Positions 285 through 62,392 of a stretch of 64,000 nucleotides of DNA are shown one piece after another. The stretch covers positions 102,839 to 166,838 of the IMG/VR virus record IMGVR_UViG_3300047472_000155; one strand, given 5' to 3'. The number at the start of each line of letters is the position of its first letter. Within the stretch, counting starts at the first letter, position 1. The DNA is from a virus. The notes under the pieces were generated by a model. The model did no database searches and was not told the DNA's origin. It worked only from the letters and a program-made list of their open reading frames with translations. The position numbers and the translations under genes were made by a program.

Positions 285-321
285 TATAAGGAGAGTGAAA
301 GATAAAATCATATTATAGAAT

Positions 322-348
322 TAGGGCGATAAGCCCTATATTTTTTTG
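322..348 (+). terminator. Intrinsic terminator
   Basis: TAGGGC-gataa-GCCCTA followed by a T7 run. Confidence 0.75.
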
Positions 349-398
349 ACAACCGGGTCTGAGCCAGTGACATTTGAAAAATAAATGATCATCAGCTA

Positions 399-427
399 TT
401 GACAAGTGGCAGATAAAATGATATAAT
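399..427 (+). promoter_or_regulatory. SigmaA-type promoter with conserved AGATAAAATGA spacer element
   Basis: TTGACA-N17-TATAAT, sequence TTGACAAGTGGCAGATAAAATGATATAAT. Confidence 0.9.
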
Positions 428-500
428 AAAGACCTAGCGACAAAGAATTAAGTAAGTGCTTTACAAATATAAGATAAAATTACATGGAGGTAATAACAAA

Positions 501-1601: not shown

Positions 1602-1633
1602 TCTTAACAAGTACAATATAAAATGAAATGGTT

Positions 1634-1663
1634 GTGTGGAGAAACATATATGTTTCTCCACAC
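1634..1663. repeat. Perfect 30-bp palindrome
   Basis: GTGTGGAGAAACATA|TATGTTTCTCCACAC, intergenic. Confidence 0.9.
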
Positions 1664-1701
1664 TCATTAAAATGAAATAAATCGAGAGGATGTTTTAATA
1701 A

Positions 1702-2775: not shown

Positions 2776-2868
2776 TATGGTAAGAGTGGTTGTACGAATG
2801 AAAGATAAAATGAAATTTATCCGGTAATTTGTATGACCACAAATCCTATAGATGTGAGAGGTAGCTAG

Positions 2869-3678: not shown

Positions 3679-4228
3679 AGTAGGAGAATTAATAACAATT
3701 AAAGAAGATTCATTTGATGATATAAAAAAATGTTATAGATTTGAAAAATGGAGCGATAAATTGCAATTTTTAACAAAAAAATCAAAGTTTGAAATTAAAA
3801 AGCACTACGGAGAAGATGATGTTATTGTATATAATTTCGAAGTTTCTTCTGTGGATTATCCCGAAGTTGTAATTGCTCTTAAAGGCATGGAAATAAATGA
3901 TCTTTTAAATCAAGATGAAGTTAGCACTTATGAGCAAAAAGGCAAGGAACTTGGTGCGCTTGTTGATCGTAAACAAGCCGCATACGGTAACGCGATAACT
4001 CAAACTTACGAAGTTGTCAAAGCTTTTATGACTCCATACTACAATGAAGATGATAAGACTTACACAATTCCTCAAAGCCTATTACAACACCTTTTGTTGC
4101 AAGTACGGATAATCGACAAACAAAATCGAATTTTCAATAATCCCGATTTTGACCTTATGGACGAAAGTCCGTATTCTGATCTTGGTGGTTACGGCTTACT
4201 TGGTAGCAATATGGTTATTGACAAATAG
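3671..4228 (+). CDS. Protein with C-terminal nucleotide-modification-associated (Nmad1/DUF1599-like) domain
   Basis: RKQAAYGNA...RIIDKQNRI...ESPYSDLGGYGLL pattern; TTG start inferred. Confidence 0.55.
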   Translation: MSRVGELITIKEDSFDDIKKCYRFEKWSDKLQFLTKKSKFEIKKHYGEDDVIVYNFEVSSVDYPEVVIALKGMEINDLLNQDEVSTYEQKGKELGALVDRKQAAYGNAITQTYEVVKAFMTPYYNEDDKTYTIPQSLLQHLLLQVRIIDKQNRIFNNPDFDLMDESPYSDLGGYGLLGSNMVIDK

Positions 4229-4254
4229 AATATAAAATGAAATTGCACACATTT

Positions 4255-4298
4255 GATGCCTACTATTCGTAAATACTGATAGTAGGCATTGCTTTTTA
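4255..4298 (+). terminator. Intrinsic terminator
   Basis: ATGCCTACTATT/GATAGTAGGCAT stem followed by GCTTTTT. Confidence 0.7.
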
Positions 4299-4301
4299 TC
4301 C

Positions 4302-4330
4302 TTGACAAATGAAAGATAAAGTGATATACT
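4302..4330 (+). promoter_or_regulatory. SigmaA-type promoter with conserved spacer element
   Basis: TTGACAAATGAAAGATAAAGTGATATACT. Confidence 0.85.
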
Positions 4331-4372
4331 ATATACATTAAGAGCCGGATAGAAATTACAGGGAGGTAATAA

Positions 4373-4681
4373 ATGGATAAACCATCTTTTATTGTAGGAG
4401 AACCATATTTAGATTATTTTGATGTTATGAAATATTTACAAGAAAAATACGAGTTCACGCATAGCGAAAAAAGACATTTTTGGAAATGGATTTTAGATGA
4501 TTCAATGAATGATGTTCATAATGGATGTTTTATTTATCTTCCCATATATAATTTTCATGAAAGATATTACATTCAAGACATTGAAAAATTTAACGATGAT
4601 CATCCAATTGTTGTTGAAATTATCAACATGTTATGGAACGAATATGGCAAAGAAGATTTGAAGTTTTATGTGTCTTGGTAA
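4373..4681 (+). CDS. Hypothetical protein
   Basis: ORF with GGAGG RBS. Confidence 0.75.
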   Translation: MDKPSFIVGEPYLDYFDVMKYLQEKYEFTHSEKRHFWKWILDDSMNDVHNGCFIYLPIYNFHERYYIQDIEKFNDDHPIVVEIINMLWNEYGKEDLKFYVSW

Positions 4682-4708
4682 ATTAAAGTATGCGAAGGAG
4701 ACATTAAA

Positions 4709-4915
4709 ATGGAAGAATACATTGAATTATGGACTTGTCATAATGGAATTCAATTATTGAGTAATAAAAAATTCTTTTGGGCAACTGATAAAAAAGGTAA
4801 TGAATGTAAGTTTCCTGTTGAGGTTCAAAAAGAATTTGTAGAAAAGTTTACTGACAATTATCACATTAATCCTAAAGGTGTAAAAGAGATTTGTGACTAT
4901 ACGAATGTAAGATAA
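4709..4915 (+). CDS. Hypothetical protein
   Basis: ORF with AAGGAG RBS. Confidence 0.7.
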   Translation: MEEYIELWTCHNGIQLLSNKKFFWATDKKGNECKFPVEVQKEFVEKFTDNYHINPKGVKEICDYTNVR

Positions 4916-4936
4916 AATAAAAAAGGAGATGTAATT

Positions 4937-5281
4937 GTGCGAAACACCAAACTGTTTATTGGTTCAAAGATTGAACAACCAAGAAATATTTATCTTCTTG
5001 ACATTAAATTGATGCATGGTGATGCAGACGTTTATACGCATTTAGAACTTAAGTTTAAAGATGTAGAGAAAAATGAGTTGATTGCCACTATTGATGTCTT
5101 GAGCCAGTTGATTCCATGGGATTACGAACGATATCATAAAATACAGGGTTTCTCAGAACTTCTTTCCGATGATTGGAATTCAGATGTAACTTGTGATGAA
5201 TTTCTTGCATCGTATGATAGACACGAATTATATTATTTCAACCAAGATGGTGAAAAGTTTAATGTTAAGGTAGTAAATTAG
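4937..5281 (+). CDS. Hypothetical protein
   Basis: ORF with AAGGAG RBS, GTG start. Confidence 0.75.
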   Translation: MRNTKLFIGSKIEQPRNIYLLDIKLMHGDADVYTHLELKFKDVEKNELIATIDVLSQLIPWDYERYHKIQGFSELLSDDWNSDVTCDEFLASYDRHELYYFNQDGEKFNVKVVN

Positions 5282-5298
5282 AAGGGGAATAAAAAAAC

Positions 5299-5529
5299 AT
5301 GTATGAAAAATTTCATCATGGCGGTGGTCATCATGGCAGAACACATGATGCAACCAAATTAGCACCCATAATGCTTAAACGTCCTAAGTCAAAAACACGT
5401 AAATATCCTATTGCTCAACATGGTAACATTAATATGTTTTGCGGTGATACCGCTAAAAAGTTAGCCAAACAAAGACACAAAAAGAAGTCAAGGAGCTACA
5501 ATAAGAAAATGTGCGAACAAACAAACTAG
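5299..5529 (+). CDS. Small basic hypothetical protein
   Basis: K/R/H-rich ORF with RBS. Confidence 0.65.
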   Translation: MYEKFHHGGGHHGRTHDATKLAPIMLKRPKSKTRKYPIAQHGNINMFCGDTAKKLAKQRHKKKSRSYNKKMCEQTN

Positions 5530-5541
5530 GAGGAACTAAAA

Positions 5542-5762: not shown

Positions 5763-7262
5763 ATGGCAACTGCAACAATTGATATGGTTGGAGTTTCCTT
5801 CCTTCGAGATGGGGCAAATGGTTGGTATACTGATGCAATAATTTGTCTTTGCTCATGTGGAAGAAGATTCAATTCAACCAAAGATAAAAAAGAGTCATTA
5901 ACATGTGAATGTGGAAATAAATATTTTAAATTAATAAGTCGTCCATCGAAAAATGTCAAAACAAATATAGGCGGTATTTTTGAATGCACTGAAAGTACAA
6001 ACAACTCTTTCAAGATCAAGAAAACGGAATTGATCGCAAATATTGTTGTTGATGAAGAAAAAAGCAGTTATTATCGTAAAGCGGATGACTTTGCAGTAAC
6101 ATTTTCTACCGCGAAAGAGTACACATTAGACTACTCTCTTAGAGATAAGAGATATGATGTATATTGTGGAGATAAATTGCTTGAAAAAGATGGCAAAGAT
6201 AAAGATTTGTTTTTTAGAGGAAAGATTGATAAAAATGAATTGTTGGATTGTATTGACAATGAAGCATTGAAATATATTCTTAAATTTGCATTTGATTATC
6301 TTGGCAAAGTAAGAGATCAAAAAATAAAAAAATGGTCAATAGCACTTGAAAGACTATTCAAAAATCCTTATATTGAATTGCTCAATAATTGTGGACTAGG
6401 AAGACATTTGGGCTATATTTACCAAAGATACAATTATTACGGAAATTTAAAAATGATTGAAGGTTTTACCAAGCCTCATGAATTCTTTCAAGTTCCCAAA
6501 TATATGATGAAATATATAAAAGAAATACAAAGTGTAAGTGATCAAATGCTAAATGCTTTTAGAAATTTTGATAAAACATTTGATAGCAATAAATTCCAAG
6601 TTATTATGCAAATTTTCAAAGAGGAAAGCACTCTTGATATTTTGTATAATAATAGTTCAATTATAACTGAATTGTATTCAAAATATGGATACAAAGACAT
6701 CAAAAAGCTTGCCATATATGTAACTAGAGATGCAAAGCTTCAACAAGGTATTATGCGTCCAACAGAAGCACTTACACTTCTTAGAGACTATGCTAAAATG
6801 TCTACCAATATGGAAATTCCTTATGATAAATTTCCAAAGTCTCTTAAGAAGGAACATGATGTCACTGCAATGAACTATAAAGTAGTAGAAAATGAAATGA
6901 AGAATAAGGAGTTTAGCCAGGCAATAGGGCTTTATGAGTCATTAGCATATACAACTAAGAAAGATTTATACGAAATAATTCTTCCAACTTCCGCATCAGA
7001 TTTAGTTAAAGAAGGAAGTGCTTTAAATCATTGTATAGCCTCATATGTTGACAACGTAATCGCAGGATCATGTCAAATCGTATTTTTAAGATGGAAAGAA
7101 GATATTGATAAACCATTCATATCTATTGAGATAAGAGATGGGAATATCCGTCAAGCACGTGGTCAATCGAATAAAAGCATAACTAATGAATATTATGAAG
7201 AACCACATGAATTTTTTGTCAAGTGGGCTGAAAAGAATGAGTTGCAAATAAATCTTTGGTGA
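5763..7262 (+). CDS. PcfJ-like domain protein with N-terminal Cys cluster
   Basis: C-terminal DYAKM...PKSLKKEHD...DLVKEGSALNHCIASY...IRQARGQSN. Confidence 0.8.
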   Translation: MATATIDMVGVSFLRDGANGWYTDAIICLCSCGRRFNSTKDKKESLTCECGNKYFKLISRPSKNVKTNIGGIFECTESTNNSFKIKKTELIANIVVDEEKSSYYRKADDFAVTFSTAKEYTLDYSLRDKRYDVYCGDKLLEKDGKDKDLFFRGKIDKNELLDCIDNEALKYILKFAFDYLGKVRDQKIKKWSIALERLFKNPYIELLNNCGLGRHLGYIYQRYNYYGNLKMIEGFTKPHEFFQVPKYMMKYIKEIQSVSDQMLNAFRNFDKTFDSNKFQVIMQIFKEESTLDILYNNSSIITELYSKYGYKDIKKLAIYVTRDAKLQQGIMRPTEALTLLRDYAKMSTNMEIPYDKFPKSLKKEHDVTAMNYKVVENEMKNKEFSQAIGLYESLAYTTKKDLYEIILPTSASDLVKEGSALNHCIASYVDNVIAGSCQIVFLRWKEDIDKPFISIEIRDGNIRQARGQSNKSITNEYYEEPHEFFVKWAEKNELQINLW

Positions 7263-7294
7263 CAAATGCAAGATAAAATGAAAGGCGGTTTAGT

Positions 7295-8437
7295 ATGACA
7301 TCATGGAATTTCACAAACAATACAAATACAAGAGCTATAAGTGGCTATGAGGATGTGTTGGATGAATTAAAGACATTTACAAAAGACGAATACACCAATG
7401 AAAATACTACAAATGAAAGAAAAAATGAAATGATTGAAGATGTTTTTGCTATTTATCGTGGCAAAAACATCTTCCCTATCACGTATTATAATGAGGATGG
7501 TATTAATGATGAAATTAAAAAGTGCATTGAGAAAGACGTTTCGTTTGATGGTAAAGTTCTTGATCTTAAGTTCAATCAAGGTCAAAGTCTTTGTCGTTAT
7601 CTATTCTCCAATCTTGCTGTAGTTGATGCTAAGATCGCAAACAATAGTATGTGGGATAGGTTTTATGATGACCACAAACTTAAACGTGCTATTGATTTCT
7701 CATTGAGATTTAAGAAATCAGTTACTCCAACAGAGATTCGCACAAGCCTTGAGATGATTGGTGGTAACGTAGCTACTAACTTCAAGACAATGAATGCTAA
7801 GGCATTGTATGAGAAGTATGTGCCTAAAGGTGGTACAATCTATGACTTCTCAGCGGGATTTGGTGGACGTATGCTTGCGGCATTAACATCTAAGAATAAC
7901 TACAAGTATCTTGGTGTTGAACCTTGTGTAGAGACTTATAATAATTTACTTCAATTAGGAGAACATATTGACAATGTTGTTGGAATAGAAGTAGATCATA
8001 ATATGATAGGCAAATCACGTTGGAAGGTCTTCTGTCAAGGTAGTGAAGATTATCGACATAAGGCTGGTAACTTTGTAGACTTTGCCTTTAGTAGTCCGCC
8101 ATATTTCAATCTTGAGAAGTATTCGGATGAAGACACACAATGTTACAATAAGTTCCCTACACTTGACGAATGGTTCCAAGGTTATGTCCGTCAAACTATT
8201 AAGAATATTTACTTTATGCTCAAACCAAATGCCCATTATGCTGTTAATATTGCAGACTTCAATATTGGCAAAGATAAAGTTGAATTCGTTGACAAGTGGA
8301 TTCAACTCTCCGTTGAAGAGGGTTTTGAACCATGTGAGAAGATTGACATGAAATTGCAAAAAAGAGTTGGCACAGGGCATGATAATATCAAACAAGAGGG
8401 AATCTTTGTTTTTAAGAAAATCGCAAAGGAGTCCTGA
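7295..8437 (+). CDS. Orphan DNA amino-methyltransferase (N4-C or N6-A)
   Basis: Motif I YDFSAGFGGR precedes catalytic FSSPPYF. Confidence 0.85.
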   Translation: MTSWNFTNNTNTRAISGYEDVLDELKTFTKDEYTNENTTNERKNEMIEDVFAIYRGKNIFPITYYNEDGINDEIKKCIEKDVSFDGKVLDLKFNQGQSLCRYLFSNLAVVDAKIANNSMWDRFYDDHKLKRAIDFSLRFKKSVTPTEIRTSLEMIGGNVATNFKTMNAKALYEKYVPKGGTIYDFSAGFGGRMLAALTSKNNYKYLGVEPCVETYNNLLQLGEHIDNVVGIEVDHNMIGKSRWKVFCQGSEDYRHKAGNFVDFAFSSPPYFNLEKYSDEDTQCYNKFPTLDEWFQGYVRQTIKNIYFMLKPNAHYAVNIADFNIGKDKVEFVDKWIQLSVEEGFEPCEKIDMKLQKRVGTGHDNIKQEGIFVFKKIAKES

Positions 8438-10132: not shown

Positions 10133-10201
10133 CAAAATCTGATTTTTATGATAACATTATAGATACAAATAAAAGATAAAATAAATGGGAGGTAATTTAA
10201 C

Positions 10202-10513
10202 TTGATTAAAACGCAAATTGTTTCTAAAGAGGTAGTGAGTTACGAAAAAGTAGAACAAATTGTAAGTGTAGACATTTCAGACTCAGGAGGAAGTAGCATT
10301 GTAGTAACATCCAATTCAGCGGAAGATAGCGATACAAGTCTGCTCAATGCAAAATACAGTCTTTATGATTTAGAAAAAATTTACATTAAAATTGAAGAAG
10401 ATGAAACAGCGGTTATTGGATTAACGGCAAAACAAACATTGGAATTAGGTGAATCACTAGTTTCTATGGCAAATTTTTTACTTGATCAATCAAAATATAC
10501 GGAGGCTAAATAA
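10202..10513 (+). CDS. Hypothetical protein
   Basis: GGGAGG RBS. Confidence 0.7.
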   Translation: MIKTQIVSKEVVSYEKVEQIVSVDISDSGGSSIVVTSNSAEDSDTSLLNAKYSLYDLEKIYIKIEEDETAVIGLTAKQTLELGESLVSMANFLLDQSKYTEAK

Positions 10514-10764
10514 TGGCAAAAGTGTTCGGTAGTGGTGCAAGCTCAAAGGTAAATAGTGCAAGAAAACAAGCTGTTAGTGCATTGGGTTTGTTTGCAAAGG
10601 CAAACGCGAAACTTCAAAAAGCTAATGAGAAATTGTTGAAGACGGAAGATGAGGCTAGACAAGAAGCGGAAGCATTGATCCAAGAGGCAACCCGCGCAAG
10701 AGCAGAACGAGAGTCAAATCAACTTGTTCAAGAAAAGTTGAAAGACTTTATTCCTCAAGTATAA
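10513..10764 (+). CDS. Small coiled-coil protein
   Basis: GGAGG RBS; A/E/K-rich helix. Confidence 0.7.
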   Translation: MAKVFGSGASSKVNSARKQAVSALGLFAKANAKLQKANEKLLKTEDEARQEAEALIQEATRARAERESNQLVQEKLKDFIPQV

Positions 10765-10778
10765 ATGAAAGATAAAAT

Positions 10779-10812
10779 GAGTGGACTATAAATAAGTCCA
10801 CTCTATTTATTT
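10779..10812 (+). terminator. Terminator-like hairpin
   Basis: GAGTGGACT-ataaata-AGTCCACTC then TATTTATTT. Confidence 0.6.
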
Positions 10813-13073: not shown

Positions 13074-14516
13074 ATGAATAACAACTTAGAAACGGCAAGA
13101 GATTTGTTGGATCAAGCAAGTGAATATATTTCAGACGCGAAATGGGTGGAGCAATTTAAACAATTGCTCCAAACTCCATCAAATGAATACCAATCACCAA
13201 GATCAAGAGAGCTTATTAAAAAACTATATTTGCTACAAGGTAAAACAATATTGACAGGTCAACATGATTATATTGAGTCGCCATATTCATATTCAAGTAA
13301 AATTTTAGGATTAACAGGATACAATACAATGATTAAGGGAGTTGAATTCGGAGGGATTACTGGTCAAGATGCTGCCACTCTATTCAAACAAAGACAGGGT
13401 ATTGTTGATGCTTGCAAAGCATGGGATGCTAAAGATGGAATTGTTTCAGCAACATATCATGCATCATACCCAGGATTGCTAAATACTTGGAGCAACGTTC
13501 AACGTGCTACAACACAAGCCGAATTTGATCAAATTATAACACCAGGAAATAATTTTTATAAGGCTTTGATTGACGACCTTGACATTTTAGCTAATCATCT
13601 TTCAGTATTGAGAGACAATGATATTCCAGTTTTGTGGCGACCATATCATGAAATGAATGGTGGATGGTTTTGGTGGGGAAAGAAAAACAACTTTAAAGCG
13701 CTTTGGAATATCATGTACGACAGGTTTGTAAATGTTCATGGTCTTGATAATCTAATTTGGGTGTGGTGTCCAAATGCTAAAAACGCATGGTGTGATGACA
13801 TTGAAAACTATTATGTAGGAACATCTAAGGCTGATGTATTAGCGTTGGACATCTACAATAATGACTTTAAACAAGAGCATCACGATTCATTATTGAAACT
13901 TGGAAAAGGAAAGCTTATAGCGATTGGTGAAAATGGAGAACTGCCAAGCATATCAAAACTTATAACGACACAGAATAAGTATTCATGGTTCATGACATGG
14001 GGTAGTATGCTTAATGAAAACAATAAAGATGATGTGATCAAAGAAGTATATGGCAATAGTTATACTCTTAAGAGAGGTCAAGAATACTCTCCATTTGGAG
14101 ATGGTCTTAAAGGAGAATACTTTGATGGCGTTAACTTTAATACATTAAAGCTTACTAGAATTGATAATAATATTAATTTTAATTGGGGTGGCAATAAACC
14201 AGTTGATTCATTAAAAGCTGACAACTTCTCTATTAGATGGAGTGGTTACATTTTGCCTAAGTATAGTGAGCAATACAAATTTATTATTCATTCTGACGAT
14301 GGAGCAAGATTGATCATTAATAATGTAATTGTTGCGGAAAGATGGAAAAACGGAGATAGTTGGATTTCTGGAATAGTTGATCTTGTTGCTGGTGTTAAAT
14401 ATCCTATTACTGTAGAGTATTATGATTCAACAGGTGCAGCGGTGATTGATTTAATTTGGTCAAGTGCTTCTCAAGTATCTCAATTGATTCCTAAAGAACA
14501 ATTATATTCAAAATAA
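13074..14516 (+). CDS. Glycoside hydrolase family 26 (beta-mannanase-like) with C-terminal PA14 domain
   Basis: PVLWRPYHEMNGGWFWWG acid/base motif, LALDIY, IAIGENG nucleophile; PA14 GLKGEYF...NFSIRWSG...SDDGARL; RBS before ATG 13074. Confidence 0.9.
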   Translation: MNNNLETARDLLDQASEYISDAKWVEQFKQLLQTPSNEYQSPRSRELIKKLYLLQGKTILTGQHDYIESPYSYSSKILGLTGYNTMIKGVEFGGITGQDAATLFKQRQGIVDACKAWDAKDGIVSATYHASYPGLLNTWSNVQRATTQAEFDQIITPGNNFYKALIDDLDILANHLSVLRDNDIPVLWRPYHEMNGGWFWWGKKNNFKALWNIMYDRFVNVHGLDNLIWVWCPNAKNAWCDDIENYYVGTSKADVLALDIYNNDFKQEHHDSLLKLGKGKLIAIGENGELPSISKLITTQNKYSWFMTWGSMLNENNKDDVIKEVYGNSYTLKRGQEYSPFGDGLKGEYFDGVNFNTLKLTRIDNNINFNWGGNKPVDSLKADNFSIRWSGYILPKYSEQYKFIIHSDDGARLIINNVIVAERWKNGDSWISGIVDLVAGVKYPITVEYYDSTGAAVIDLIWSSASQVSQLIPKEQLYSK

Positions 14517-15159: not shown

Positions 15160-15188
15160 TTGACAAATAGAAGATAAAATGATATAAT
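15160..15188 (+). promoter_or_regulatory. SigmaA-type promoter with conserved spacer element
   Basis: TTGACAAATAGAAGATAAAATGATATAAT. Confidence 0.9.
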
Positions 15189-16423: not shown

Positions 16424-16470
16424 CATTCATCGGTAAATTTGATATAATAACAAATGTAAGATAAAACGAA
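16420..16470 (+). promoter_or_regulatory. SigmaA-type promoter with the element immediately downstream of the -10
   Basis: TTGACA 16420, TATAAT 16443, then ACAAATGTAAGATAAAACGAA. Confidence 0.8.
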
Positions 16471-16820: not shown

Positions 16821-16869
16821 TAACAAATGTAAGATAAAATAAAAAATAACTTATTGGAGGAATTATAAA

Positions 16870-17151
16870 ATGGCTAAATATTACGCAACCGGAACAAAGA
16901 AAGTAGAAGTAAAGAACGAACAAGGAAAGAAAAGTGTTGTAGAGACTCCAGTTGTTATTGAATTTGATAGCTTGATTGTGAATACTCGCGTACAAGCGGT
17001 TAATGAAGCAAAACGATGGGCAAAGAAGGATAGCATTGTTCTTGATGGCATTGATGGAGTACATGTTTTGCAAGGCACACAGAAAGGTGGAGATACGTTG
17101 ACAAAACGTATTCAAGTCTTGAAAGCTACAGGTAAATTGCCTAAGTTCTAA
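16870..17151 (+). CDS. Hypothetical protein
   Basis: GGAGG RBS. Confidence 0.75.
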   Translation: MAKYYATGTKKVEVKNEQGKKSVVETPVVIEFDSLIVNTRVQAVNEAKRWAKKDSIVLDGIDGVHVLQGTQKGGDTLTKRIQVLKATGKLPKF

Positions 17152-17242
17152 TTGCAAAGGGCTTTTATAGGAAAGTATAAAAGCCCTTGAAATAAATTAA
17201 CACAAATGCAATATAAAATAAAAAATGAGAGAAGGAATTTAA

Positions 17243-17830
17243 ATGATGAATCCAGAGAAACTTTTTTACGAACAGTTGGAAGTAACAAAACAAATGGTTG
17301 AAGAACTTAAGAATATCAATAGCAAGCTTTCTGAAATTAAATCTAAAATTGACCAGAGCAAGGATAGTTCTCCATTTAGTGTTGAAGATTTTCTTAGTGG
17401 TATTTTTGGAATTGATACTACAAATGGTTCACTACTTGCTACGGAACTTGAAGATGATCTTGAAGATGAGCTTGATAGTCTTTTTATTGATGGTTATGAT
17501 GATGATGACGATAATGTTAATAATCTTGACCTTCTTGAATTGTTGGCAATCGAGGATGTAATTGATCTTCTTGATTCTAAACAGTTGCCATTTACATTTT
17601 ATGGAGCTAAAAAATACGGATATGAGCCATACAGTGATAGTGATGTTACTTTTGTAACTGATTACTTTAATAACAAAGTAGTGGCAAAACTTTGGTTCAA
17701 TGGAGAGCTTGCAAAAGAAGGTGTTGCAAAATGCGATCCATCAGATGTATTCATTGAAGAAACTGGAAAAGCAATTGCATTGCGGCGGTTGTTTGATCTC
17801 AACATTCCAGAATCATTGCTTCAACATTAA
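17243..17830 (+). CDS. Hypothetical phage protein
   Basis: C-terminal GVAKCDPSDVF.EE.GKAIALRR motif, which I recall from Bacillus phage proteins. Confidence 0.75.
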   Translation: MMNPEKLFYEQLEVTKQMVEELKNINSKLSEIKSKIDQSKDSSPFSVEDFLSGIFGIDTTNGSLLATELEDDLEDELDSLFIDGYDDDDDNVNNLDLLELLAIEDVIDLLDSKQLPFTFYGAKKYGYEPYSDSDVTFVTDYFNNKVVAKLWFNGELAKEGVAKCDPSDVFIEETGKAIALRRLFDLNIPESLLQH

Positions 17831-21745: not shown

Positions 21746-21774
21746 TTGACAAATAGAAGATAAAATGATATGAT
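21746..21774 (+). promoter_or_regulatory. SigmaA-type promoter with conserved spacer element
   Basis: TTGACAAATAGAAGATAAAATGATATGAT. Confidence 0.85.
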
Positions 21775-22023: not shown

Positions 22024-22052
22024 TTGACAAATGTAAGATAAAATGATACAAT
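22024..22052 (+). promoter_or_regulatory. SigmaA-type promoter with conserved spacer element
   Basis: TTGACAAATGTAAGATAAAATGATACAAT. Confidence 0.85.
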
Positions 22053-22777: not shown

Positions 22778-22806
22778 TTGACAAATGCAAGATAAAGTGA
22801 AACAAT
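22778..22806 (+). promoter_or_regulatory. Promoter-like element with conserved spacer (weak -10)
   Basis: TTGACAAATGCAAGATAAAGTGAAACAAT. Confidence 0.65.
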
Positions 22807-24729: not shown

Positions 24730-24758
24730 TTGACAAGCGAGAGATAAAATGATATAAT
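24730..24758 (+). promoter_or_regulatory. SigmaA-type promoter of nrdIEF with conserved spacer element
   Basis: TTGACAAGCGAGAGATAAAATGATATAAT. Confidence 0.9.
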
Positions 24759-24769: not shown

Positions 24770-24808
24770 AGAAGGTTGACCCCTTAAAAGGTTAACCTTC
24801 TCTTTTTA
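24770..24808 (+). terminator. Terminator-like hairpin in the nrd leader
   Basis: AGAAGGTTGACC/GGTTAACCTTCT then CTTTTT. Confidence 0.65.
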
Positions 24809-28286: not shown

Positions 28287-28315
28287 TTGACAAATAACAG
28301 ATAAAATGATATAAT
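28287..28315 (+). promoter_or_regulatory. SigmaA-type promoter with conserved spacer element
   Basis: TTGACAAATAACAGATAAAATGATATAAT. Confidence 0.9.
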
Positions 28316-29162: not shown

Positions 29163-29249
29163 AGAAATAAGATAAATGTAAGATAAAATGAAAGGGTAAG
29201 GATAATGTTAAAGTTATTTCTTACCCTTTACTATTTAAGGAGGGCGAGC

Positions 29250-33232: not shown

Positions 33233-33581
33233 ACGGAAAGATTATATTATTCTTGGTGTTGACATTGGATATAAGACATTTGAAGATGCTCAAGAATATC
33301 TTGATGAAGAAACATTTATTGAAATGGAGTCTTATATTCACTATGATGAAATTGGAAAAATGACCATCATTCCTCAATGGGAAGATGAAAAAGGATGTTA
33401 TGTTGGTTATTTAATTGCAAAAAGTGATGAATATTCTGGATTTGAAAAAGTTCACAAGATTAGTCTAGGATATGATGATGACGATGAAATTGATGACATT
33501 ATTCAATTTGTTCAAGATCATCTTGACCAGATAATTGAACCAGAAGATATTAAAGTAATTGTCTTCACAGTTTGGAGTTAA
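33213..33581 (+). CDS. Acidic hypothetical protein
   Basis: ORF in operon. Confidence 0.7.
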   Translation: MIGMGVRRKDYIILGVDIGYKTFEDAQEYLDEETFIEMESYIHYDEIGKMTIIPQWEDEKGCYVGYLIAKSDEYSGFEKVHKISLGYDDDDEIDDIIQFVQDHLDQIIEPEDIKVIVFTVWS

Positions 33582-33584
33582 TAA

Positions 33585-34052
33585 ATGGAAGATAAAATTA
33601 AAACAGTTATTGGCTTAGACCTTAATATCAGGTCTAAGCCAATCCAATATAAAGTTGATGAAAACGGATGTCACACTTGTATATCTCATTATACAAGAAA
33701 CGATGGATATATTTCAGTAAAAATAAAAGGAAAAAATATTAGAGTTCATCGACTTGTATATGAATTACACAATGGAAAAATTGATAACGGATTAGTTGTG
33801 ATGCATACATGCGACAATCCATCATGCATCAATCCTAATCACATGGAACTTGGAACACACAAGGAAAATATGGAAGACAAGTCAAAAAAGAATAGAACAC
33901 CTAAAAGTCAAGTTAGGTTGACTCAGGATAAAAAACTTGAATTGTGCTTAAGCAATTTAACAGAAAGTGATCTATGCAAAAAATACGGTGTATCATATCG
34001 GACAGTAAGAAACGTCAAAAAAAGATATAGAGAGGGATGTGAAAAGTTATGA
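33585..34052 (+). CDS. Free-standing HNH homing endonuclease
   Basis: RVHRLVY...VMHTCDNPSCINPNHMELGTHKENMED plus C-terminal HTH-like segment. Confidence 0.9.
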   Translation: MEDKIKTVIGLDLNIRSKPIQYKVDENGCHTCISHYTRNDGYISVKIKGKNIRVHRLVYELHNGKIDNGLVVMHTCDNPSCINPNHMELGTHKENMEDKSKKNRTPKSQVRLTQDKKLELCLSNLTESDLCKKYGVSYRTVRNVKKRYREGCEKL

Positions 34053-35997: not shown

Positions 35998-36478
35998 TCT
36001 AATCGTAGCACATGACACTTCAAGAGGAATAGGTTTTAACAATGAGCTTCCTTGGCACTTGCCAAGCGATCTTAAACGATTTAAACAACTCACAGAAGGG
36101 CAAGCTGTTTTTATGGGACGCAAGACACATGAAAGCATTGGTAAAGTCTTGCCGAATAGAGAGAATATCATTCTAACACACGATAGAGGTTATCGTGCGG
36201 ACAATTGTTATATCATAAACTATTTAGCTCAATTGGATGTGTACATGTCCATGAATCCAGATAAAGATGTGTGGGTAATAGGTGGTAGTGAGATATATAA
36301 ATTAATGTTGCCTTATGTGGATAGAATATATACAACCGAAATTGATCACACATTTGAATGTGACACATATTTTCCTACATTGGATGACGAAGAATGGTAT
36401 TTATCTCATCACGAATATTATACACAAGACAGTTATCCTTACACTTTCGTTGTATATGATAGAATACTGAAACCTTGA
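35984..36478 (+). CDS. folA: Dihydrofolate reductase
   Basis: GIG..NELPWHLPSDLKRFK, MGRKTHESI, LPNRENI, VIGGSEIY, CDTYFP. Confidence 0.96.
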   Translation: MIMLNLIVAHDTSRGIGFNNELPWHLPSDLKRFKQLTEGQAVFMGRKTHESIGKVLPNRENIILTHDRGYRADNCYIINYLAQLDVYMSMNPDKDVWVIGGSEIYKLMLPYVDRIYTTEIDHTFECDTYFPTLDDEEWYLSHHEYYTQDSYPYTFVVYDRILKP

Positions 36479-36503
36479 CAAATGACAGATAAAATAGTAT
36501 AAT
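36475..36503 (+). promoter_or_regulatory. SigmaA-type promoter with conserved spacer element
   Basis: TTGACAAATGACAGATAAAATAGTATAAT. Confidence 0.88.
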
Positions 36504-37358: not shown

Positions 37359-37387
37359 TTGACAAGTGAAAGATAATATGATAATAT
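37359..37387 (+). promoter_or_regulatory. Promoter with conserved spacer element
   Basis: TTGACAAGTGAAAGATAATATGATAATAT. Confidence 0.75.
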
Positions 37388-37486
37388 AACATTACAAAGT
37401 TCACCGAGATGAGATATGAAAAAATATCTCTTGACAAAAAGAACCAATGTAAGATAAAATGAAATTACATTAAAGGAGGGAACAAG

Positions 37487-38606: not shown

Positions 38607-39113
38607 ATGAACAAGTTTAATGAAAAAAGTCAAGCAAATTTTAGTGTTACTAATCAAAATGTTCTTATTTTTGTTGAAGGTGAAAACGAACAAAATTCAA
38701 ACAATGTAAAAAAGAAAAGAGAAACAAAAAGAGAACGTGTTGTTAAGCTAATTGAATCTGGCATGAGCAAAGCTGAAATAATGGACATCGAGAACATTTT
38801 GGAAGGTAGTTACTACAACTATAAAACCATTTACAATAAGATGAAAAATCTTACTGATTCAAGACTTCATAAGACATTGAAAAATCAAGACACCGAAAAA
38901 GACCTTGTTATTTCGAAACCAATGTTTAATGCAAAAGCTTTTAAAAATGTTTCATTTTTGACGGTTAATGGAAAACCGTCGATGTTGCTTGAGGTTTCAG
39001 ATTCCTATATTAGATATCTTGCATTAGAAGGTGGCGGAATGACTTCTCAAAGAAGTGTTCATGTTTCCGATGTAATTAAAAATCAAGAATGCATTAAGCT
39101 ATTTATTCAATAA
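38607..39113 (+). CDS. Putative HTH DNA-binding protein
   Basis: RVVKLIESGMSKAEIMDIENILEGSYYNYK resembles a helix-turn-helix. Confidence 0.5.
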   Translation: MNKFNEKSQANFSVTNQNVLIFVEGENEQNSNNVKKKRETKRERVVKLIESGMSKAEIMDIENILEGSYYNYKTIYNKMKNLTDSRLHKTLKNQDTEKDLVISKPMFNAKAFKNVSFLTVNGKPSMLLEVSDSYIRYLALEGGGMTSQRSVHVSDVIKNQECIKLFIQ

Positions 39114-39155
39114 ATGAAAGATAAAATGAAATATAAAAAAGAGAGGATGTTATAA

Positions 39156-42666: not shown

Positions 42667-42857
42667 TGTGGAATTGGTTGCATAATTTAAACTTATTTGT
42701 TAAGTTACTAATTTTTGTTTTAGCTGTAGTTGTTGCATGTTTCATTATTGTGTTCTTGATAAAAGTGCTGATAAAGGTCTTCATTATTATTCTAGCAATT
42801 GTAATCCTGTCGATTGTTGGATGGTTACTTTATCAAATATTAACCGATGACAAATAG
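42666..42857 (+). CDS. Small two-TM membrane protein
   Basis: AAGGAG RBS; highly hydrophobic. Confidence 0.7.
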   Translation: MWNWLHNLNLFVKLLIFVLAVVVACFIIVFLIKVLIKVFIIILAIVILSIVGWLLYQILTDDK

Positions 42858-42872
42858 AAGATAAAATAACTA

Positions 42873-42915
42873 TTGACAAATGTTAGGTGTTCTGATATAA
42901 TATCAGTACACCTAA
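42873..42915 (+). promoter_or_regulatory. dnaE promoter embedded in an inverted repeat
   Basis: TTGACA 42873, TATAAT 42896; TTAGGTGT.CTGATA/TATCAG.ACACCTAA overlaps it. Confidence 0.75.
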
Positions 42916-43008
42916 TTTTGTTTAAAGGAGATGTCAACTTGAAAGCTTTAAATTCTCAATGAGAATTTGATAGCCAAGAGACAAATATAAGATAAAGGAA
43001 GTGCTTTA

Positions 43009-48998: not shown

Positions 48999-49589
48999 AT
49001 GTCAAATAATCACCTAGAGCGTATTATCATGTTTTCAAATGAAGTAGATTACAATAGTGTAGGAGATATCATTCATAAAATTGTACACTTCAATGTGTAT
49101 GATGATCTTATGGAATCTCAAAAAATCGGATACGACAGACCTCCAATTATTCTTATTGTCAATTCTCCAGGAGGAGAAGTGTATAGCGGTTGGGGAATTG
49201 TTGATGCCATTGAAACAAGCACGACTCCCGTAGTTACTGTTTGCTATGGAGTATGTGCCTCTATGGGATTCGCAATATTCTTGGCAGGTCATACTAGATT
49301 TATGGGCGCACATTCTTATGCTATGTATCATGAAGTAGCAAGTTGGAATGGAGGAAAGTTAACAAAACAACAATTGACAGTTACAAACCTTGAAAATCTT
49401 CAAGCTTTGTATGATCTTTACGTTGAAGACAAAACAAAGATTAATAAAGACACTTTAAATAAAGTTAAAAAAGAACAAGACGATTGGTTTATTGATGCTC
49501 AAGAGTCATTAAGTCTTGGCATTTGTGACTTTGTTCTTGATGGACCTATCAATTGGTTTGACAATGGAAAGAAGGAAGTACAAGAGTAA
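48999..49589 (+). CDS. clpP: ClpP-family serine protease
   Basis: VNSPGGEV, GVCASMG (Ser), MYHEV (His), DWFIDAQES..LG..D (Asp). Confidence 0.85.
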   Translation: MSNNHLERIIMFSNEVDYNSVGDIIHKIVHFNVYDDLMESQKIGYDRPPIILIVNSPGGEVYSGWGIVDAIETSTTPVVTVCYGVCASMGFAIFLAGHTRFMGAHSYAMYHEVASWNGGKLTKQQLTVTNLENLQALYDLYVEDKTKINKDTLNKVKKEQDDWFIDAQESLSLGICDFVLDGPINWFDNGKKEVQE

Positions 49590-49601
49590 GATAAAATTAA
49601 A

Positions 49602-50812: not shown

Positions 50813-51329
50813 GAGTGATGGCTTTGCTTTTGAGAAGTATTTCATGCAATACACAAAACATCATGGTTTTGAAATTGAACGAAATGACAAAAATGATTTA
50901 ACAAAAGCTGACTTTATGTTGCAAATTCCAATTGATCCAAAAGTAAGAAAGTCACCTTTTTTTAAGGCAATGGAATATCATAGACTTCAACCTTCAAAAT
51001 TAGTAACTATTGATCTCCCAAAGATCAATAGTTACTTGAAACATGGCAAAAATGCCTTCCTTCTTATTTACGTTGATTATCGTCCTCATTTTGAAACAAG
51101 AGGACTATATATGATATCAGCACGTATGGTAAAAGAAATAAGCAAAAAGGCAACAAGACATGGTACTCATATGGATAATGAAAAGAAAAAGCTGATTCCA
51201 AGAGCATATGTAAGCATTGATGAAATGTGGAATGTTTCAAAGCTTGCTAATTTAGATCATCTTGACAAATATTTAAATCAAGAAGTTATGAAGGCTGATA
51301 AAAAGAAGGCTCTCAGAACTTTGACTTGA
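50790..51329 (+). CDS. Hypothetical protein, possibly PD-(D/E)XK nuclease fold
   Basis: G.AFE...ADF pattern; second catalytic motif not clear. Confidence 0.45.
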   Translation: MAKGIQNRSDGFAFEKYFMQYTKHHGFEIERNDKNDLTKADFMLQIPIDPKVRKSPFFKAMEYHRLQPSKLVTIDLPKINSYLKHGKNAFLLIYVDYRPHFETRGLYMISARMVKEISKKATRHGTHMDNEKKKLIPRAYVSIDEMWNVSKLANLDHLDKYLNQEVMKADKKKALRTLT

Positions 51330-51354
51330 CAAATGAAAGATAAAATGGTATAAT
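51326..51354 (+). promoter_or_regulatory. SigmaA-type promoter with conserved spacer element
   Basis: TTGACAAATGAAAGATAAAATGGTATAAT. Confidence 0.9.
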
Positions 51355-51366
51355 ATAAGTACCTAG

Positions 51367-51402
51367 TAGAGAGGGGATTTATTCCACCTCTCTGTTTTTG
51401 TT
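51367..51402 (+). terminator. Terminator-like hairpin in the rusA leader
   Basis: TAGAGAGGGGA/TCCACCTCTCTG then TTTTTGTT. Confidence 0.65.
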
Positions 51403-55299: not shown

Positions 55300-55330
55300 A
55301 AAAAATAGGAGAGCAAAGTTCCGCTCTCCT
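55300..55330 (-). terminator. Terminator hairpin in the lysis-cassette leader
   Basis: AGGAGAGC/GCTCTCCT with a U-tract on the - strand. Confidence 0.75.
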
Positions 55331-55339
55331 TTTACTGTT

Positions 55340-55368
55340 ATTATACCATTTTATCTTGTATTTGTCAA
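55340..55368 (-). promoter_or_regulatory. SigmaA-type promoter with conserved spacer element (lysis cassette)
   Basis: Reverse complement TTGACAAATACAAGATAAAATGGTATAAT. Confidence 0.9.
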
Positions 55369-56212: not shown

Positions 56213-56223
56213 CTCTCCTTCCT

Positions 56224-58032: not shown

Positions 58033-58036
58033 TAAA

Positions 58037-61000
58037 TTACCCCTCTTCTGATATTACTGCTGAAATGTAAACCGAATTTGCAACTGTTGTTTTAGCTACG
58101 ACATTAATTGCGCTAGACGCATTAACCAATAATGTAATTGGAATAAAGTCATAAACATCAATTGGCATTGTATTACTTATTGAATTAACTACACGATTAT
58201 GTGTTCCAGATGCATCAGTGTAATTAATAGTAATAGACACATTTCTAGCAGCAGTACATCTCATATATATTTTTACAGTATAAATAGCTGTTGTTGGTGA
58301 TGTAGGCGCTGTAAATGTCGCTACCACAACCTCAGATGTGATTGCTAGTTGTAAGTCTTTCACGACAGCACGTGTAGCAGCAACTTCTGCAATCTTTCTA
58401 TATTCATCACGTGCTGGGATATTCCAAGCTGTAGAGCTTGAACTTACTTGGAATCCAGATAAGTATTGTGCGTTAAGATTAGCAACCATTACATTGCTTG
58501 CAACTTTTAAAGGTGCAACTGTACTACTAACAAGACCAGATGACAAAACTCCATCAGTAGCAAATCCATGTACGAAAGTAAGTTCAGTTGAAGTATAATC
58601 TGTAGGCAAATTTCCTACTGCTCCATTCGTTAAAAGACTCCATCCTGTTGACCCTATCATGTTGACATTGAAAGAAATAATTGCTTGTGTGGTTTTATAA
58701 ACCTCAAATGCAGCAATGTATCCTGTTGATGTGGCATGATATACAAGTCTCGCTTTTACTATACCGATCGCTGTGTTTGATGATCCAAATGAAATTTGTG
58801 TAATAGAAGGTCCAGATATTCCGGATAACCCTATTTGAATAGTTGCATAACCAGCCACTGAACCAGTAGACCAATTTATTTCAAATGTTGCTGTTTTTTG
58901 ACCAGTGGTAATATCAGTTTCAGCTAGTCTTCTCCACGCTACTCCAGAAGCTATGCCAGAACTGTATGAAGTTGCCGAAGATGCAATGAGACCATACACT
59001 TCCCCTAATGCATTTCTAACTACAACTGTATCTGGAGATGGCATTGTACTTGCATAATGTCCTTCTAACATATGTGCGTTCAAGTTTTCTACAAGAGTAG
59101 TGCTCGAAACGACTAATGGCGCTATGCCCTCTTCTGCTCTTAGAGTTACACTATAAACATCAAAGTCACCATTTTCTCTAAGAGTAAAGGAATTTCCCCA
59201 GTCCCAATCTACATCATTTACAGACAATGATGGTGCAAAAACAAGATCATCTGTTTCGGGATGGTGAATTGTCCAACTCTTGAACCCAGTCTTTTTTGCA
59301 ACTATAGGATAGCTTCCGGTAGTTTCTACTCCAACAAATGTTGGTGTAGCAAAAGTTACTAAATTTTGATTTAAATGATACCCATCAACCATGTCAGCAT
59401 TTAAATTTCCTACAAATACATCGGAGGTAACTATTAAAGGTGCAACTCCTGGTTCTGCTGTTAATCTGAGTCTACGAATTTGCGCATCTCCAAAACCATC
59501 TCTTGCTACAACTGTGTTTGCTGCTACCGTATCTGATGCATGATATCCATCGACCATATCAGCATTTAAATTTGTAACCAAATCACCGTTTGATGTTCCA
59601 CTTCCAATATCATCAAATGTTAGTCTACTGTTTATCCAATTAGTTCCATTATATTTTAATACATGAGATGATGATGGGCTTGTAATTGCTACATCGGCAA
59701 GCTTCGATAATGTAGGAGTTGCCCAAATTGCTGCTCCATCTGATCCGTATTTTAAGAAGTTGTCAGCGCTTCCGCCAGCAGGAATGTGTTTGTTGCCTGC
59801 GGTAGTTGGATGAACATAAACAACATTTTCTGCGCCATCAATTAGAATTTGTCCATTAACTGAACTATGTGACGTTTTATTCGCTTGAACACTAATTGCT
59901 GCCAATTTGTTGAAATCACTAATCGACATTTTACCATCGGCAATTGAAGATGCATTTGGAATCGAATTCGCGGAAACTGGAATCCATTCTGTTCCAGTGT
60001 AACGATAAGTGTAATCCGTATCTTTGACATTTACAGTCCATCCATCTTGCGGATTTGGATACGATGTATCAATATCTGCATATGTGTCTACTGCTACTTT
60101 CCATTCAACATTGGAAGTTGCTTGACTTATAAGCGTATCTATCTCTGCTTTTGTATACTTGTCATTCCAAATTGTTTTAAGCGTAGAACTTATCGCTAAG
60201 TCAGGATTTTGAACCGTTCCAGCAACTACTATATCATCATTGAGTGAAGTGAGACTAACAACAGAACCAGTACCATCGTTACCTTTTAAAGCAAGCAATT
60301 GCCAATATCCAGTGTCCGTTGGCACTTTATTTAGTGCTTGTACTGTACACATATAACTTGAACCATTATATGTTACAACGTTATTAGGATAATACGTTGT
60401 TGAAGCACTATAAACTCCCTTTGATACTGTTCTTTCTACCAATGAATTAGCGGTATCTACTGCGTTGTTTGCATTGGTTGTAGCCGTATTAGCCGCAATC
60501 GTTGCCGCTTCCGTATTGGTCTTAGCTGTGTTTGCCTCTGTCGCTGCGTTATTTGCCAATGTTGCAGCATTAGTTGCTGATGCTGTGGCATCATTAGCAT
60601 TAGTCGTAGCAGTGTTTGCATTAGTTGTTGCGGTATTCGCATTTGTAGTAGCAGTTATTGTAGCAGTGACAATTGCTGAAATATCTAAAATTGGTGCCCA
60701 ATTTGCAACTACACTCAATGCTACATTAAGTGTTGAATCTTTTATACAAAGATACATTTTTTGACTTGTAGAATCAATTACAAAATCTCCGTATTGATAA
60801 GTTATAGATGTGCTATAAACACCCTTCCAATTGAAGGCTACAATCTTTCTCCAATATGTTGTATTTGTTGGCAATGTTCCCAATGTAGTTGTTAAAATAC
60901 ACATGTAAGTGCATCCATTGTAATAAACCATATTTCTAGGCATATAAACTATAGCTGCACTATAGTCTCCCTTGTGAACAAAAGCATCACCAGAATCTTT

Positions 61001-62335
61001 AGCATAATTCCCTTGTGTTTGTGCAAATTCAGCTTGAGCGTTAGCATTCGTAGCTGCATCATTCGCTTCATCTCTAGCTATGTTAGCTAGAGATGTGGCA
61101 ATATCAGCATTGGTCTTAGCAGTATTGGCAGCATCAGCCGCATCATTGGCAGCATCCGTGGCTATATTAGCACTATTAGTTGCTTCGTTTGCTAATTCGG
61201 TAGCTTCATTGGCATTGGTCTTAGCAGTATTAGCAGCATCAGCCGCATCATTAGCATTGATTGTAGCATTATTTGCATTTGTAGTTGCTATGTTTGCAGC
61301 ATCAGCAGCATCATTGGCAGCATCAGTAGCTATATTGGCATTTGTAGTAGCTTCATTGGCGTTATTAGTTGCTGTATTAGCTAAACCTGTTGCTACGTTA
61401 GCAGCATCTCTAGCCGTGTTAGCGTTTGCGGTAGCTGTATTAGCTAAACCTGTTGCAGTATTGGCATTTGTAGTTGCCAAAACTGCAGCGTCTACAACTC
61501 CTTGTACGGTTATCATCTTGTTCCAGTAAGATGTATTTGTTAACAATTGACCAGTATTTGATTCGGAAATTGACATATACAAATTGTAGTTACTAGCATC
61601 AGTCACGAAATCGCCATATGTATAAGCTGTAGCAGAAGCATATGTGCCTTTCCAAACCATGCTACCTATTTTCTTCCAATATGTAACGTTTGTTGGAACA
61701 TTTCCTGTGGTTGTTGCAATTGCCATATATGTAGCACCATTGTAATAAACCATATTTCTAGCAACATATTCCGTTCCAGCAGCATAAGTCCCTTTAAATA
61801 CTAACGAATCCCCAGAGAACTTAGCATAATCTCCCTCTGCTTTTGCATAATCTCCTTGAGCTTTCGCATAATCAGCTTGGGTTATTGCAAGAGCAGTAGC
61901 TGCTTCTGCGTTTGCAATAGCAACAATCAATTGAGCTAACGCATCTAAAGCCTCTACTCCTAAATCAATTATTTGTTGTAACGTTATAGTAACATCTGGA
62001 TTATCATTATGTCCGTATATACGTGAAGCAGGATAAAGGATAAACCCTCTTCCCTTATATGTCATATTTGATATTGTCAAACCTTCTTGCGAAGCATGGA
62101 AGGTAATGATACCGTTTTCATAATTTACAATGAATTGATATGTAGAAGGTGTTCCTTCATAAATTTCTGTGTATCCACTTATAGACACATGAGTAAATTC
62201 ATCTGGAATTTCTGTTAACACTACCATATTGTTTATTACTTTTTGCGATTCTACTTTATCAACGTATGGTTCAGATGAGTCTCCTTTTCTCCATACAATA
62301 CGAATCGGATCATTGTAAATAAAATAATTTTCCAT
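58037..62335 (-). CDS. Long tail fibre with Ala/Asn/Thr coiled coils and repeated aromatic beta modules
   Basis: Heptad A..A..N repeats; five KG.Y....Y...V...Y...YW-type modules; four NLNA.M.DG-type repeats. Confidence 0.8.
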   Translation of the reverse strand: MENYFIYNDPIRIVWRKGDSSEPYVDKVESQKVINNMVVLTEIPDEFTHVSISGYTEIYEGTPSTYQFIVNYENGIITFHASQEGLTISNMTYKGRGFILYPASRIYGHNDNPDVTITLQQIIDLGVEALDALAQLIVAIANAEAATALAITQADYAKAQGDYAKAEGDYAKFSGDSLVFKGTYAAGTEYVARNMVYYNGATYMAIATTTGNVPTNVTYWKKIGSMVWKGTYASATAYTYGDFVTDASNYNLYMSISESNTGQLLTNTSYWNKMITVQGVVDAAVLATTNANTATGLANTATANANTARDAANVATGLANTATNNANEATTNANIATDAANDAADAANIATTNANNATINANDAADAANTAKTNANEATELANEATNSANIATDAANDAADAANTAKTNADIATSLANIARDEANDAATNANAQAEFAQTQGNYAKDSGDAFVHKGDYSAAIVYMPRNMVYYNGCTYMCILTTTLGTLPTNTTYWRKIVAFNWKGVYSTSITYQYGDFVIDSTSQKMYLCIKDSTLNVALSVVANWAPILDISAIVTATITATTNANTATTNANTATTNANDATASATNAATLANNAATEANTAKTNTEAATIAANTATTNANNAVDTANSLVERTVSKGVYSASTTYYPNNVVTYNGSSYMCTVQALNKVPTDTGYWQLLALKGNDGTGSVVSLTSLNDDIVVAGTVQNPDLAISSTLKTIWNDKYTKAEIDTLISQATSNVEWKVAVDTYADIDTSYPNPQDGWTVNVKDTDYTYRYTGTEWIPVSANSIPNASSIADGKMSISDFNKLAAISVQANKTSHSSVNGQILIDGAENVVYVHPTTAGNKHIPAGGSADNFLKYGSDGAAIWATPTLSKLADVAITSPSSSHVLKYNGTNWINSRLTFDDIGSGTSNGDLVTNLNADMVDGYHASDTVAANTVVARDGFGDAQIRRLRLTAEPGVAPLIVTSDVFVGNLNADMVDGYHLNQNLVTFATPTFVGVETTGSYPIVAKKTGFKSWTIHHPETDDLVFAPSLSVNDVDWDWGNSFTLRENGDFDVYSVTLRAEEGIAPLVVSSTTLVENLNAHMLEGHYASTMPSPDTVVVRNALGEVYGLIASSATSYSSGIASGVAWRRLAETDITTGQKTATFEINWSTGSVAGYATIQIGLSGISGPSITQISFGSSNTAIGIVKARLVYHATSTGYIAAFEVYKTTQAIISFNVNMIGSTGWSLLTNGAVGNLPTDYTSTELTFVHGFATDGVLSSGLVSSTVAPLKVASNVMVANLNAQYLSGFQVSSSSTAWNIPARDEYRKIAEVAATRAVVKDLQLAITSEVVVATFTAPTSPTTAIYTVKIYMRCTAARNVSITINYTDASGTHNRVVNSISNTMPIDVYDFIPITLLVNASSAINVVAKTTVANSVYISAVISEEG

Positions 62336-62363
62336 TTAAACAAACCTCCTTTATTATAATATT

Positions 62364-62392
62364 ATTATACCATTTTATCTGTCATTTGTCAA
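62364..62392 (-). promoter_or_regulatory. SigmaA-type promoter with conserved spacer element (tail fibre)
   Basis: Reverse complement TTGACAAATGACAGATAAAATGGTATAAT. Confidence 0.9.

Follow-up and report, generated by a model that had tools for sequence, protein, structure and literature searches.

A 20-bp element with the pattern ACAAATRNMAGATAAAATGA, here called the box, is dispersed over the genome of an uncultured soil phage (IMG/VR record IMGVR_UViG_3300047472_000155, 166,838 bp). It was analysed in a stretch of 64,000 nucleotides (the window; bases 102839-166838 of the record) and in the whole phage. The element is probably the cognate box of a predicted MrpR/SroF-family repressor of this phage, with the promoter copies serving as operators and the copies at gene junctions as elongation blocks. 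This explanation draws on sequence comparison, and with it we infer binding, repression, stoperator action and a temperate lifestyle. It is most likely a known kind of switch, that of MrpR and SPBRE in phage SPbeta, which here uses a different word and far more copies.

Up to 3 mismatches to the pattern were allowed in the window, and up to 2 or 3 in the genome. The window contained 33 matches, whereas dinucleotide shuffles averaged 0.56 and never gave more than 3. A preliminary description of the window, made from its letters alone, had reported about 33 copies, which agrees with this count. All 13 sites that it placed in the spacer of a sigma-A promoter consisted of TTGACA, a 17-bp spacer formed by the element and a TATAAT-like hexamer. 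Among the 20 further copies that it listed, 18 were present at up to 3 mismatches, and those at 291 and 38541 turned out to be only half-boxes, with an intact 3' half and about 5 mismatches. Its list lacked the copies at 7409, inside an open reading frame (ORF), and at 33581. In the whole phage, 54 copies were found at up to 2 mismatches and 76 at up to 3.

The box is asymmetric and follows the direction of transcription, as had been described. At up to 2 mismatches, 54 of 54 copies in the genome lay on the strand of their gene block, and a crude test against the nearest ORF agreed for 49 of the 54. Plus-strand copies fell within a rightward block (45-155 kb of the genome), and minus-strand copies within a leftward block with tRNA, packaging, head, tail and lysis genes. 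The claim that the element sits at gene boundaries was also borne out, as 44 of the 54 copies were mostly outside called ORFs, even though coding sequence makes up 84% of the genome and non-coding sequence only 16%. Stop codons occur in two of the three frames of the box (TAA at position 13, TGA at position 18), and these alone bar it from most coding sequence. The box also contains an internal direct repeat, AAATG ... AAATG, at positions 3-7 and 15-19 with a spacing of 12 bp. PHROG matches downstream of the boxes included primase, the ribonucleotide reductase operon, dUTPase, RusA, DNA polymerase, endolysin and tail fibre, so that the element precedes replication, tail and lysis genes alike.

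A homologue of MrpR (YopR/SroF) is encoded at genome 83362-84294, 19.5 kb upstream of the window, in agreement with the earlier expectation of an MrpR-like master regulator outside it. The local candidate proposed at window 38607-39113 showed no DNA-binding signature and no significant family match. The MrpR homologue matched PF22822 (MrpR_N_CB, 69.5 bits) and PF22823 (MrpR_C_cat, 48.8 bits), both above the cut-off of 27. Searching with SPbeta proteins by tblastn gave a full-length MrpR (YopR) match at genome 83332-84270, with a YopQ homologue directly upstream. Against structures in the PDB, the homologue matched 8A0A, 8BJ6 and 8BJV over its full length (E about 2e-25) and 9RD5 at 1.6e-26. 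The position of Tyr304, the nucleophile residue of MrpR, is Phe in this phage, in its sister phage and in Brevibacillus phage Sundance. Because of this Phe, the homologue is not a recombinase, and it had no match to the Phage_integrase Pfam family. The residues aligned to the base-reading helix of SroF (K233, F234, H237, R238) are S, S, Y and R in this phage, the sister phage and a relative with 51% identity, and they differ in more distant lineages; the mapping is approximate and only suggestive.

Other SPbeta homologues detected by tblastn were YopP at 47 kb and YonN at 41 kb, and the YopP-like tyrosine recombinase was barely above the Phage_integrase cut-off. A LexA-type SOS box with one mismatch (genome 84898-84911) lies inside a 137-aa ORF that shortly follows the gene of the MrpR homologue. 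The orthologous box of the sister phage (63073-63086) is perfect and likewise inside an ORF. This box may be relevant to an SOS-controlled antirepressor; no Sar homologue or antirepressor was identified in this phage.

SPBRE is bound by MrpR in vivo and in vitro (PMC10516654). SroF of phage phi3T, which belongs to the same family, binds as a monomer: it closes around an asymmetric A-tract box of 26 bp, of which it reads 24 (bioRxiv 10.1101/2025.11.27.690993). SPBRE was extracted anew from the SPbeta record and gave a consensus of about ACAAATACAAAWAATATGTATATAAT in 11 copies, all along transcription. At yorE and yonP it fills the 17-bp spacer from TAGACA to TATAAT, and at yopV, yopM and yonX it lies directly 5' of the ribosome-binding site; both site classes, in the spacer and before the ribosome-binding site, thus already exist in SPbeta. 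The 5' half, ACAAATRNAA, is common to SPBRE and the box of this phage, whereas the 3' half is GATAAAATGA here and AAWAATATGTA in SPBRE. Given this common 5' half, the specificity suggested earlier to be new is only partly so. The SPBRE pattern, with its 11 sites in SPbeta, gave one chance-level match in this phage.

Like SPbeta and phi3T, this phage combines an inactive integrase-fold repressor adjoining a yopQ homologue with a long, asymmetric, A-tract-rich dispersed box, which follows transcription and lies in sigma-A spacers or before ribosome-binding sites. The copy number is different, with 54-76 here and 11 in SPbeta. Unlike in SPbeta, almost all of the non-early promoters contain the box, and the promoters of the structural and lysis operons are among them. 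In SPbeta the structural and lysis operons are transcribed with YonO. No tblastn match to YonO or AimR was obtained in this phage, SprA was not found in it, its sroD homologue is unlinked, and its genome measures 167 kb.

The copies were divided into classes by their position relative to sigma-A hexamers. Class A (22-23 in the genome, 13 in the window) has the form cTTGACAAATGNAAGATAAAATG(A/G)TATAAT. Its spacer is 17 bp, and the box occupies the whole of it and overlaps both hexamers, so that box bases 1-3 are the end of the -35 hexamer and the last three are the TGn of an extended -10. Two class A-type sites, at 22778 (AACAAT) and 37359 (TAATAT), have weak -10 hexamers. Class B (about 32 copies) is the box alone, with zero flank information beyond positions 1-22; it typically lies 13-60 nt 5' of a start codon, often across the upstream stop codon. 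Class C comprises three promoters (window 37443 and 46224; genome 87368) in which the box's own TAAAAT is the -10 and TTGACA lies 17-18 bp upstream. At several further promoters the box lies 1-15 nt past the -10, for example at window 16450. The sites are as follows, in window coordinates.

402-421, plus strand: class A box in the spacer of TTGACA (399-404) and TATAAT (422-427), 5' of a 366-aa gene (501-1601); kept in the sister phage
463-482, plus strand: class B box, 18 nt 5' of the ATG at 501
1607-1626, plus strand: class B box, 5' of a Sak4-like gene (1702-2775)
2794-2813, plus strand: class B box, 15 nt past the end of a weak sigma-A promoter
4221-4240, plus strand: box with TTG (-35) and without a -10, followed by a terminator-like hairpin (4254-4291)
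4305-4324, plus strand: class A box with -10 TATACT, 5' of 4373-4681
4901-4920, plus strand: class B box that overlaps the end of the preceding ORF and lies 16 nt 5' of the GTG at 4937
7262-7281, plus strand: class B box without mismatches, at the stop codon of 5763-7262
7409-7428, plus strand: intra-ORF copy with the variant GAAAAAAT, of doubtful function
10165-10184, plus strand: class B box, 7 nt past the end of a weak promoter and 17 nt 5' of the start at 10202
10761-10780, plus strand: class B box at a gene junction, with a terminator-like hairpin (10779-10803) directly after it and a helicase operon downstream
15163-15182, plus strand: class A box, perfect match, at the head of the primase operon
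16450-16469, plus strand: box over the start-site region of a consensus promoter (TTGACA 16420, TATAAT 16443), 1 nt past its -10
16823-16842, plus strand: class B box, 5' of 16870-17151
17202-17221, plus strand: class B box, 5' of 17243-17830
21749-21768, plus strand: class A box with -10 TATGAT
22027-22046, plus strand: class A box with -10 TACAAT
22781-22800, plus strand: class A-like box with -35 TTGACA and the weak -10 AACAAT
24733-24752, plus strand: class A box at the head of the flavodoxin and ribonucleotide reductase operon, with a terminator-like leader hairpin (24770-24801)
28290-28309, plus strand: class A box, 5' of the dUTPase gene
29172-29191, plus strand: class B box
33581-33600, plus strand: copy at an ORF junction, 2 mismatches
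36478-36497, plus strand: class A box
37362-37381, plus strand: class A-like box with -10 TAATAT
37443-37462, plus strand: class C box, TTGACA at 37431, 18-bp spacer, box TAAAAT as -10
39110-39129, plus strand: class B box, 5' of the nicotinamide phosphoribosyltransferase gene
42850-42869, plus strand: box of ambiguous role, just upstream of sigma-A-like hexamers within a terminator-like hairpin (42882-42916)
42981-43000, plus strand: degenerate box with 3 mismatches, 8 nt 5' of the DNA polymerase start codon
46224-46243, plus strand: class C box, TTGACA at 46213, 17-bp spacer, box TAAAAT as -10
49580-49599, plus strand: degenerate class B box, 3 mismatches
51329-51348, plus strand: class A box, 5' of the RusA gene, with a terminator-like leader hairpin (51365-51396)
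55346-55365, minus strand: class A box at the head of a leftward operon with endolysin and tail spike
62370-62389, minus strand: class A box at the head of a 1432-aa tail-fibre gene and a 602-aa tail gene

Two other features of the window were recorded on the plus strand. At 42873-42916, a strong terminator-like hairpin just 5' of the DNA polymerase gene contains consensus TTGACA and TATAAT hexamers, and this segment may be a terminator or a promoter. The gene at 13074-14516, inside the replication module and right after a DnaB-like helicase, encodes a protein that combines a PA14 domain with a glycoside hydrolase family 26 (mannanase-type) domain.

The box is thus found in three or more registers with respect to the sigma-A hexamers, since it can form the spacer, supply the -10 or follow the -10. 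This fits an operator rather than a polymerase recognition element. A phage-specific promoter set would be expected to hold the element at a constant distance from the start site, which was not observed here. We nevertheless considered that the class B copies might be such promoters, at which an unrecognised phage factor would redirect host RNA polymerase so that transcripts begin close to the box's 3' end, in the manner of T4 late or SPO1 middle promoters, with class A being dual promoters. A set of 50-76 copies at 13-60 nt before start codons is typical of phage promoters, the TAAAAT of the box acts as -10 in the three class C promoters, and some boxes lie within the 3'-terminal part of the preceding ORF. 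However, no phage sigma factor was found in this phage, and neither Sigma70_r2 nor a YonO-like polymerase was matched in any of four related phages. The conservation of the box is unlike that of a -10 hexamer, since position 12 is invariant and positions 17-19 are looser, and its register is variable. Most of the junction copies belong to long operons and have no terminator upstream of them, so that no promoter is needed there, although terminators are few anyway in the 85-103 kb stretch and their absence says little about class B promoters. The homologous SPBRE is a proven repressor site. Taken with these points, phage-specific promoters are a rather unlikely explanation.

The sister phage IMGVR_UViG_3300042923_000502 (G001) shares 76% nucleotide identity with this phage over 70% of the genome. 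It keeps the box at 45 of 54 orthologous places, together with the site class. At the 45 aligned sites, box positions 1-4, 6, 10 and 12-16 were 96-100% identical, against about 76% in the flanks and overall; the box is therefore under selection. This result bears on the idea that no trans-acting factor is involved, and that the box tunes sigma-A strength as a spacer and was spread by duplication of a promoter cassette, or that it is an RNA-level signal before the ribosome-binding site. In its favour are the fixed register within class A promoters and the many copies just 5' of a Shine-Dalgarno sequence. Yet 32 copies have no promoter hexamers while the box is still under selection in the sister phage, and transcripts from a class A promoter do not include its own box, which speaks against an RNA signal. 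We regard this idea as very unlikely.

To look for lysogens or host promoters, the class A pattern was also searched for in 185,579 species genomes and in metagenome contigs. Only three unrelated single matches were obtained, and no lysogen was found among the 185,579 species genomes. The three matches were exact over the 29-bp class A promoter and fell in L033 and L034, which are Clostridium-type metagenome-assembled genome contigs, and in the metagenome contig L038. Scanning of L033 and L034 gave no further box copies. Most likely, the three are chance sigma-A promoters.

MrpR homologues were found in other large viral contigs, and every lineage with such a box has one. Across six lineages the box sequence shifts with the divergence of the homologue, and the layout is the same in each. 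Next to this phage, the lineages are the following, with the identity of their MrpR homologue to that of this phage.

Sister phage: 71-72%, same box, 74 copies at up to 3 mismatches
169-kb contig G002: 50-51%, box GAATAAAT or ...AAGAATAAATG, about 19-38 copies
Contig L043: 41-42%, box ACAAGTGATAAATAAAATGA
169-kb contig G003: 37%, box ACA-N5-AAAAAWTAATGA, 55 copies
Brevibacillus phage Sundance, gp157 (annotated as integrase): 34%, box AAAGCCAAATAAAGTAC, 24 copies

Another phage or host DNA-binding protein might bind the box in place of the MrpR homologue, since the assignment to MrpR comes from homology and co-occurrence only and the early region encodes other regulators, such as an Ant-like protein. 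Against this, the 5' half and the layout of the box are common with SPBRE, which is bound by MrpR, and an MrpR homologue accompanies such a box in every lineage. A different binder is, in our opinion, unlikely.

Megablast of 24 kb against cultured phages gave only an 81-nt match, to Bacillus phage Kirov. The closest cultured relative is Sundance (NC_028749), whose DNA polymerase is 56% identical. Sundance resembles this phage in encoding an MrpR homologue (gp157) and in the layout of its own box, which is oriented and present in 24 copies, but the sequence of that box is different (AAAGCCAAATAAAGTAC). In the Sundance paper, a motif search found no motif and gp157 was taken as evidence for integration (PMC4909266). 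A second element, approximately GTGTGT-N17-TTTACATTAATATATGAAG, occurs on the minus strand of NC_028749 at 121.5-134 kb, in about 17 copies before the small genes of the right end. It is unreported in the same paper (PMC4909266) and looks like a separate promoter class.

We believe that the predicted repressor, an inactive protein with the tyrosine-recombinase fold encoded at genome 83362-84294, would act as follows. By analogy with SroF, one monomer would clamp one asymmetric A-tract-rich box of about 20-24 bp. At the 22-23 strong class A promoters, repressor bound over the spacer and both hexamers would occlude RNA polymerase. Because these promoters are near-consensus, repression would be more sensible there than activation. 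At a few promoters the box supplies the -10 or covers the start site. At the roughly 30 junction copies without an evident promoter, bound repressor would halt polymerase during elongation, as happens at the stoperators of mycobacteriophage L5. The box is absent from intergenic sigma-A-like promoters at 45-103 kb of the genome, among them those of the early region of small genes (45-85 kb) and the one at 82349, which lies 5' of the repressor gene. Since the early promoters, including that of the repressor gene itself, have no box, the repressor could be produced and the genes for replication, metabolism, structure and lysis nevertheless remain silent.

Three class A promoters are followed, about 10-50 nt on and before the first gene, by a terminator-like hairpin with a T-run (window 24770-24801 and 51365-51396 on the plus strand, and about 55304-55333 on the minus strand). 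The box between -35 and -10 might accordingly load a lambda-Q-like antiterminator that acts on these leader terminators. With our own hairpin scorer, strong hairpins were found after 9 of 54 boxes and upstream of 37 of 226 box-free control genes, which is no enrichment, and class B offers no promoter at which a factor could load. The antitermination idea was dropped as extremely unlikely. The leader hairpins may be attenuators or short RNAs.

The L5 repressor is a monomer with more than 20 asymmetric sites in promoters and short intergenic spaces, oriented along transcription, and it stops elongation in an orientation-dependent manner (PMC9283540). The junction copies of this phage look like stoperators of this type. 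Like the cluster A mycobacteriophages L5 and TipsytheTRex, this phage has sites in promoters and short intergenic spaces with an orientation tied to transcription, and the two systems are also similar in a monomeric two-domain repressor, an asymmetric site and reliance on the host polymerase. The strict co-orientation of the boxes fits the L5 model. The L5 repressor (gp71) differs in its unrelated helix-turn-helix fold and 13-bp site. Since the candidate binder of this phage is of the integrase fold, its system at most works like that of L5 and does not belong to it. The elongation block was demonstrated for the L5-type system, whereas here it is deduced.

Several observations weigh against the MrpR-type repressor switch. 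No serine integrase (Resolvase domain), ParA-type ATPase or AimR was found in this phage, nor a lysogen among the 185,579 species genomes, and a temperate life is uncertain. Any cis element diverges with phylogeny, and the co-variation of box and repressor therefore fails to single out the MrpR homologue. About 11 sites suffice for SPbeta, and the approximately 20 junction copies here without a nearby promoter may thus have another role. The replication and structural operons are under the same promoter type, and lytic timing is not accounted for.

A further-reaching proposal is tentative, and we hold it to be possible but doubtful. The phage might have a genome-wide switch of more than 50 sites with about 30 orientation-dependent elongation blocks, which would be an independent re-invention, with an integrase fold, of the mycobacteriophage stoperator principle. 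It could even be the main timing device in a clade of phages of about 165-170 kb without YonO, arbitrium or a recognised integrase.

If the MrpR-type repressor switch is correct, annotations of "integrase" such as that of Sundance gp157 are probably those of repressors, and they would be poor evidence for integration. The series of repressors and boxes, from 72% down to 28% protein identity, would provide a natural record of specificity change in a monomeric 24-bp reader. The MrpR/SroF switch, in which an integrase was turned into a repressor, would extend beyond the arbitrium phages of Bacillus to large uncultured soil phages and Brevibacillus phage Sundance. The many junction copies would make a concrete case for stoperator-like silencing in phages of Firmicutes.

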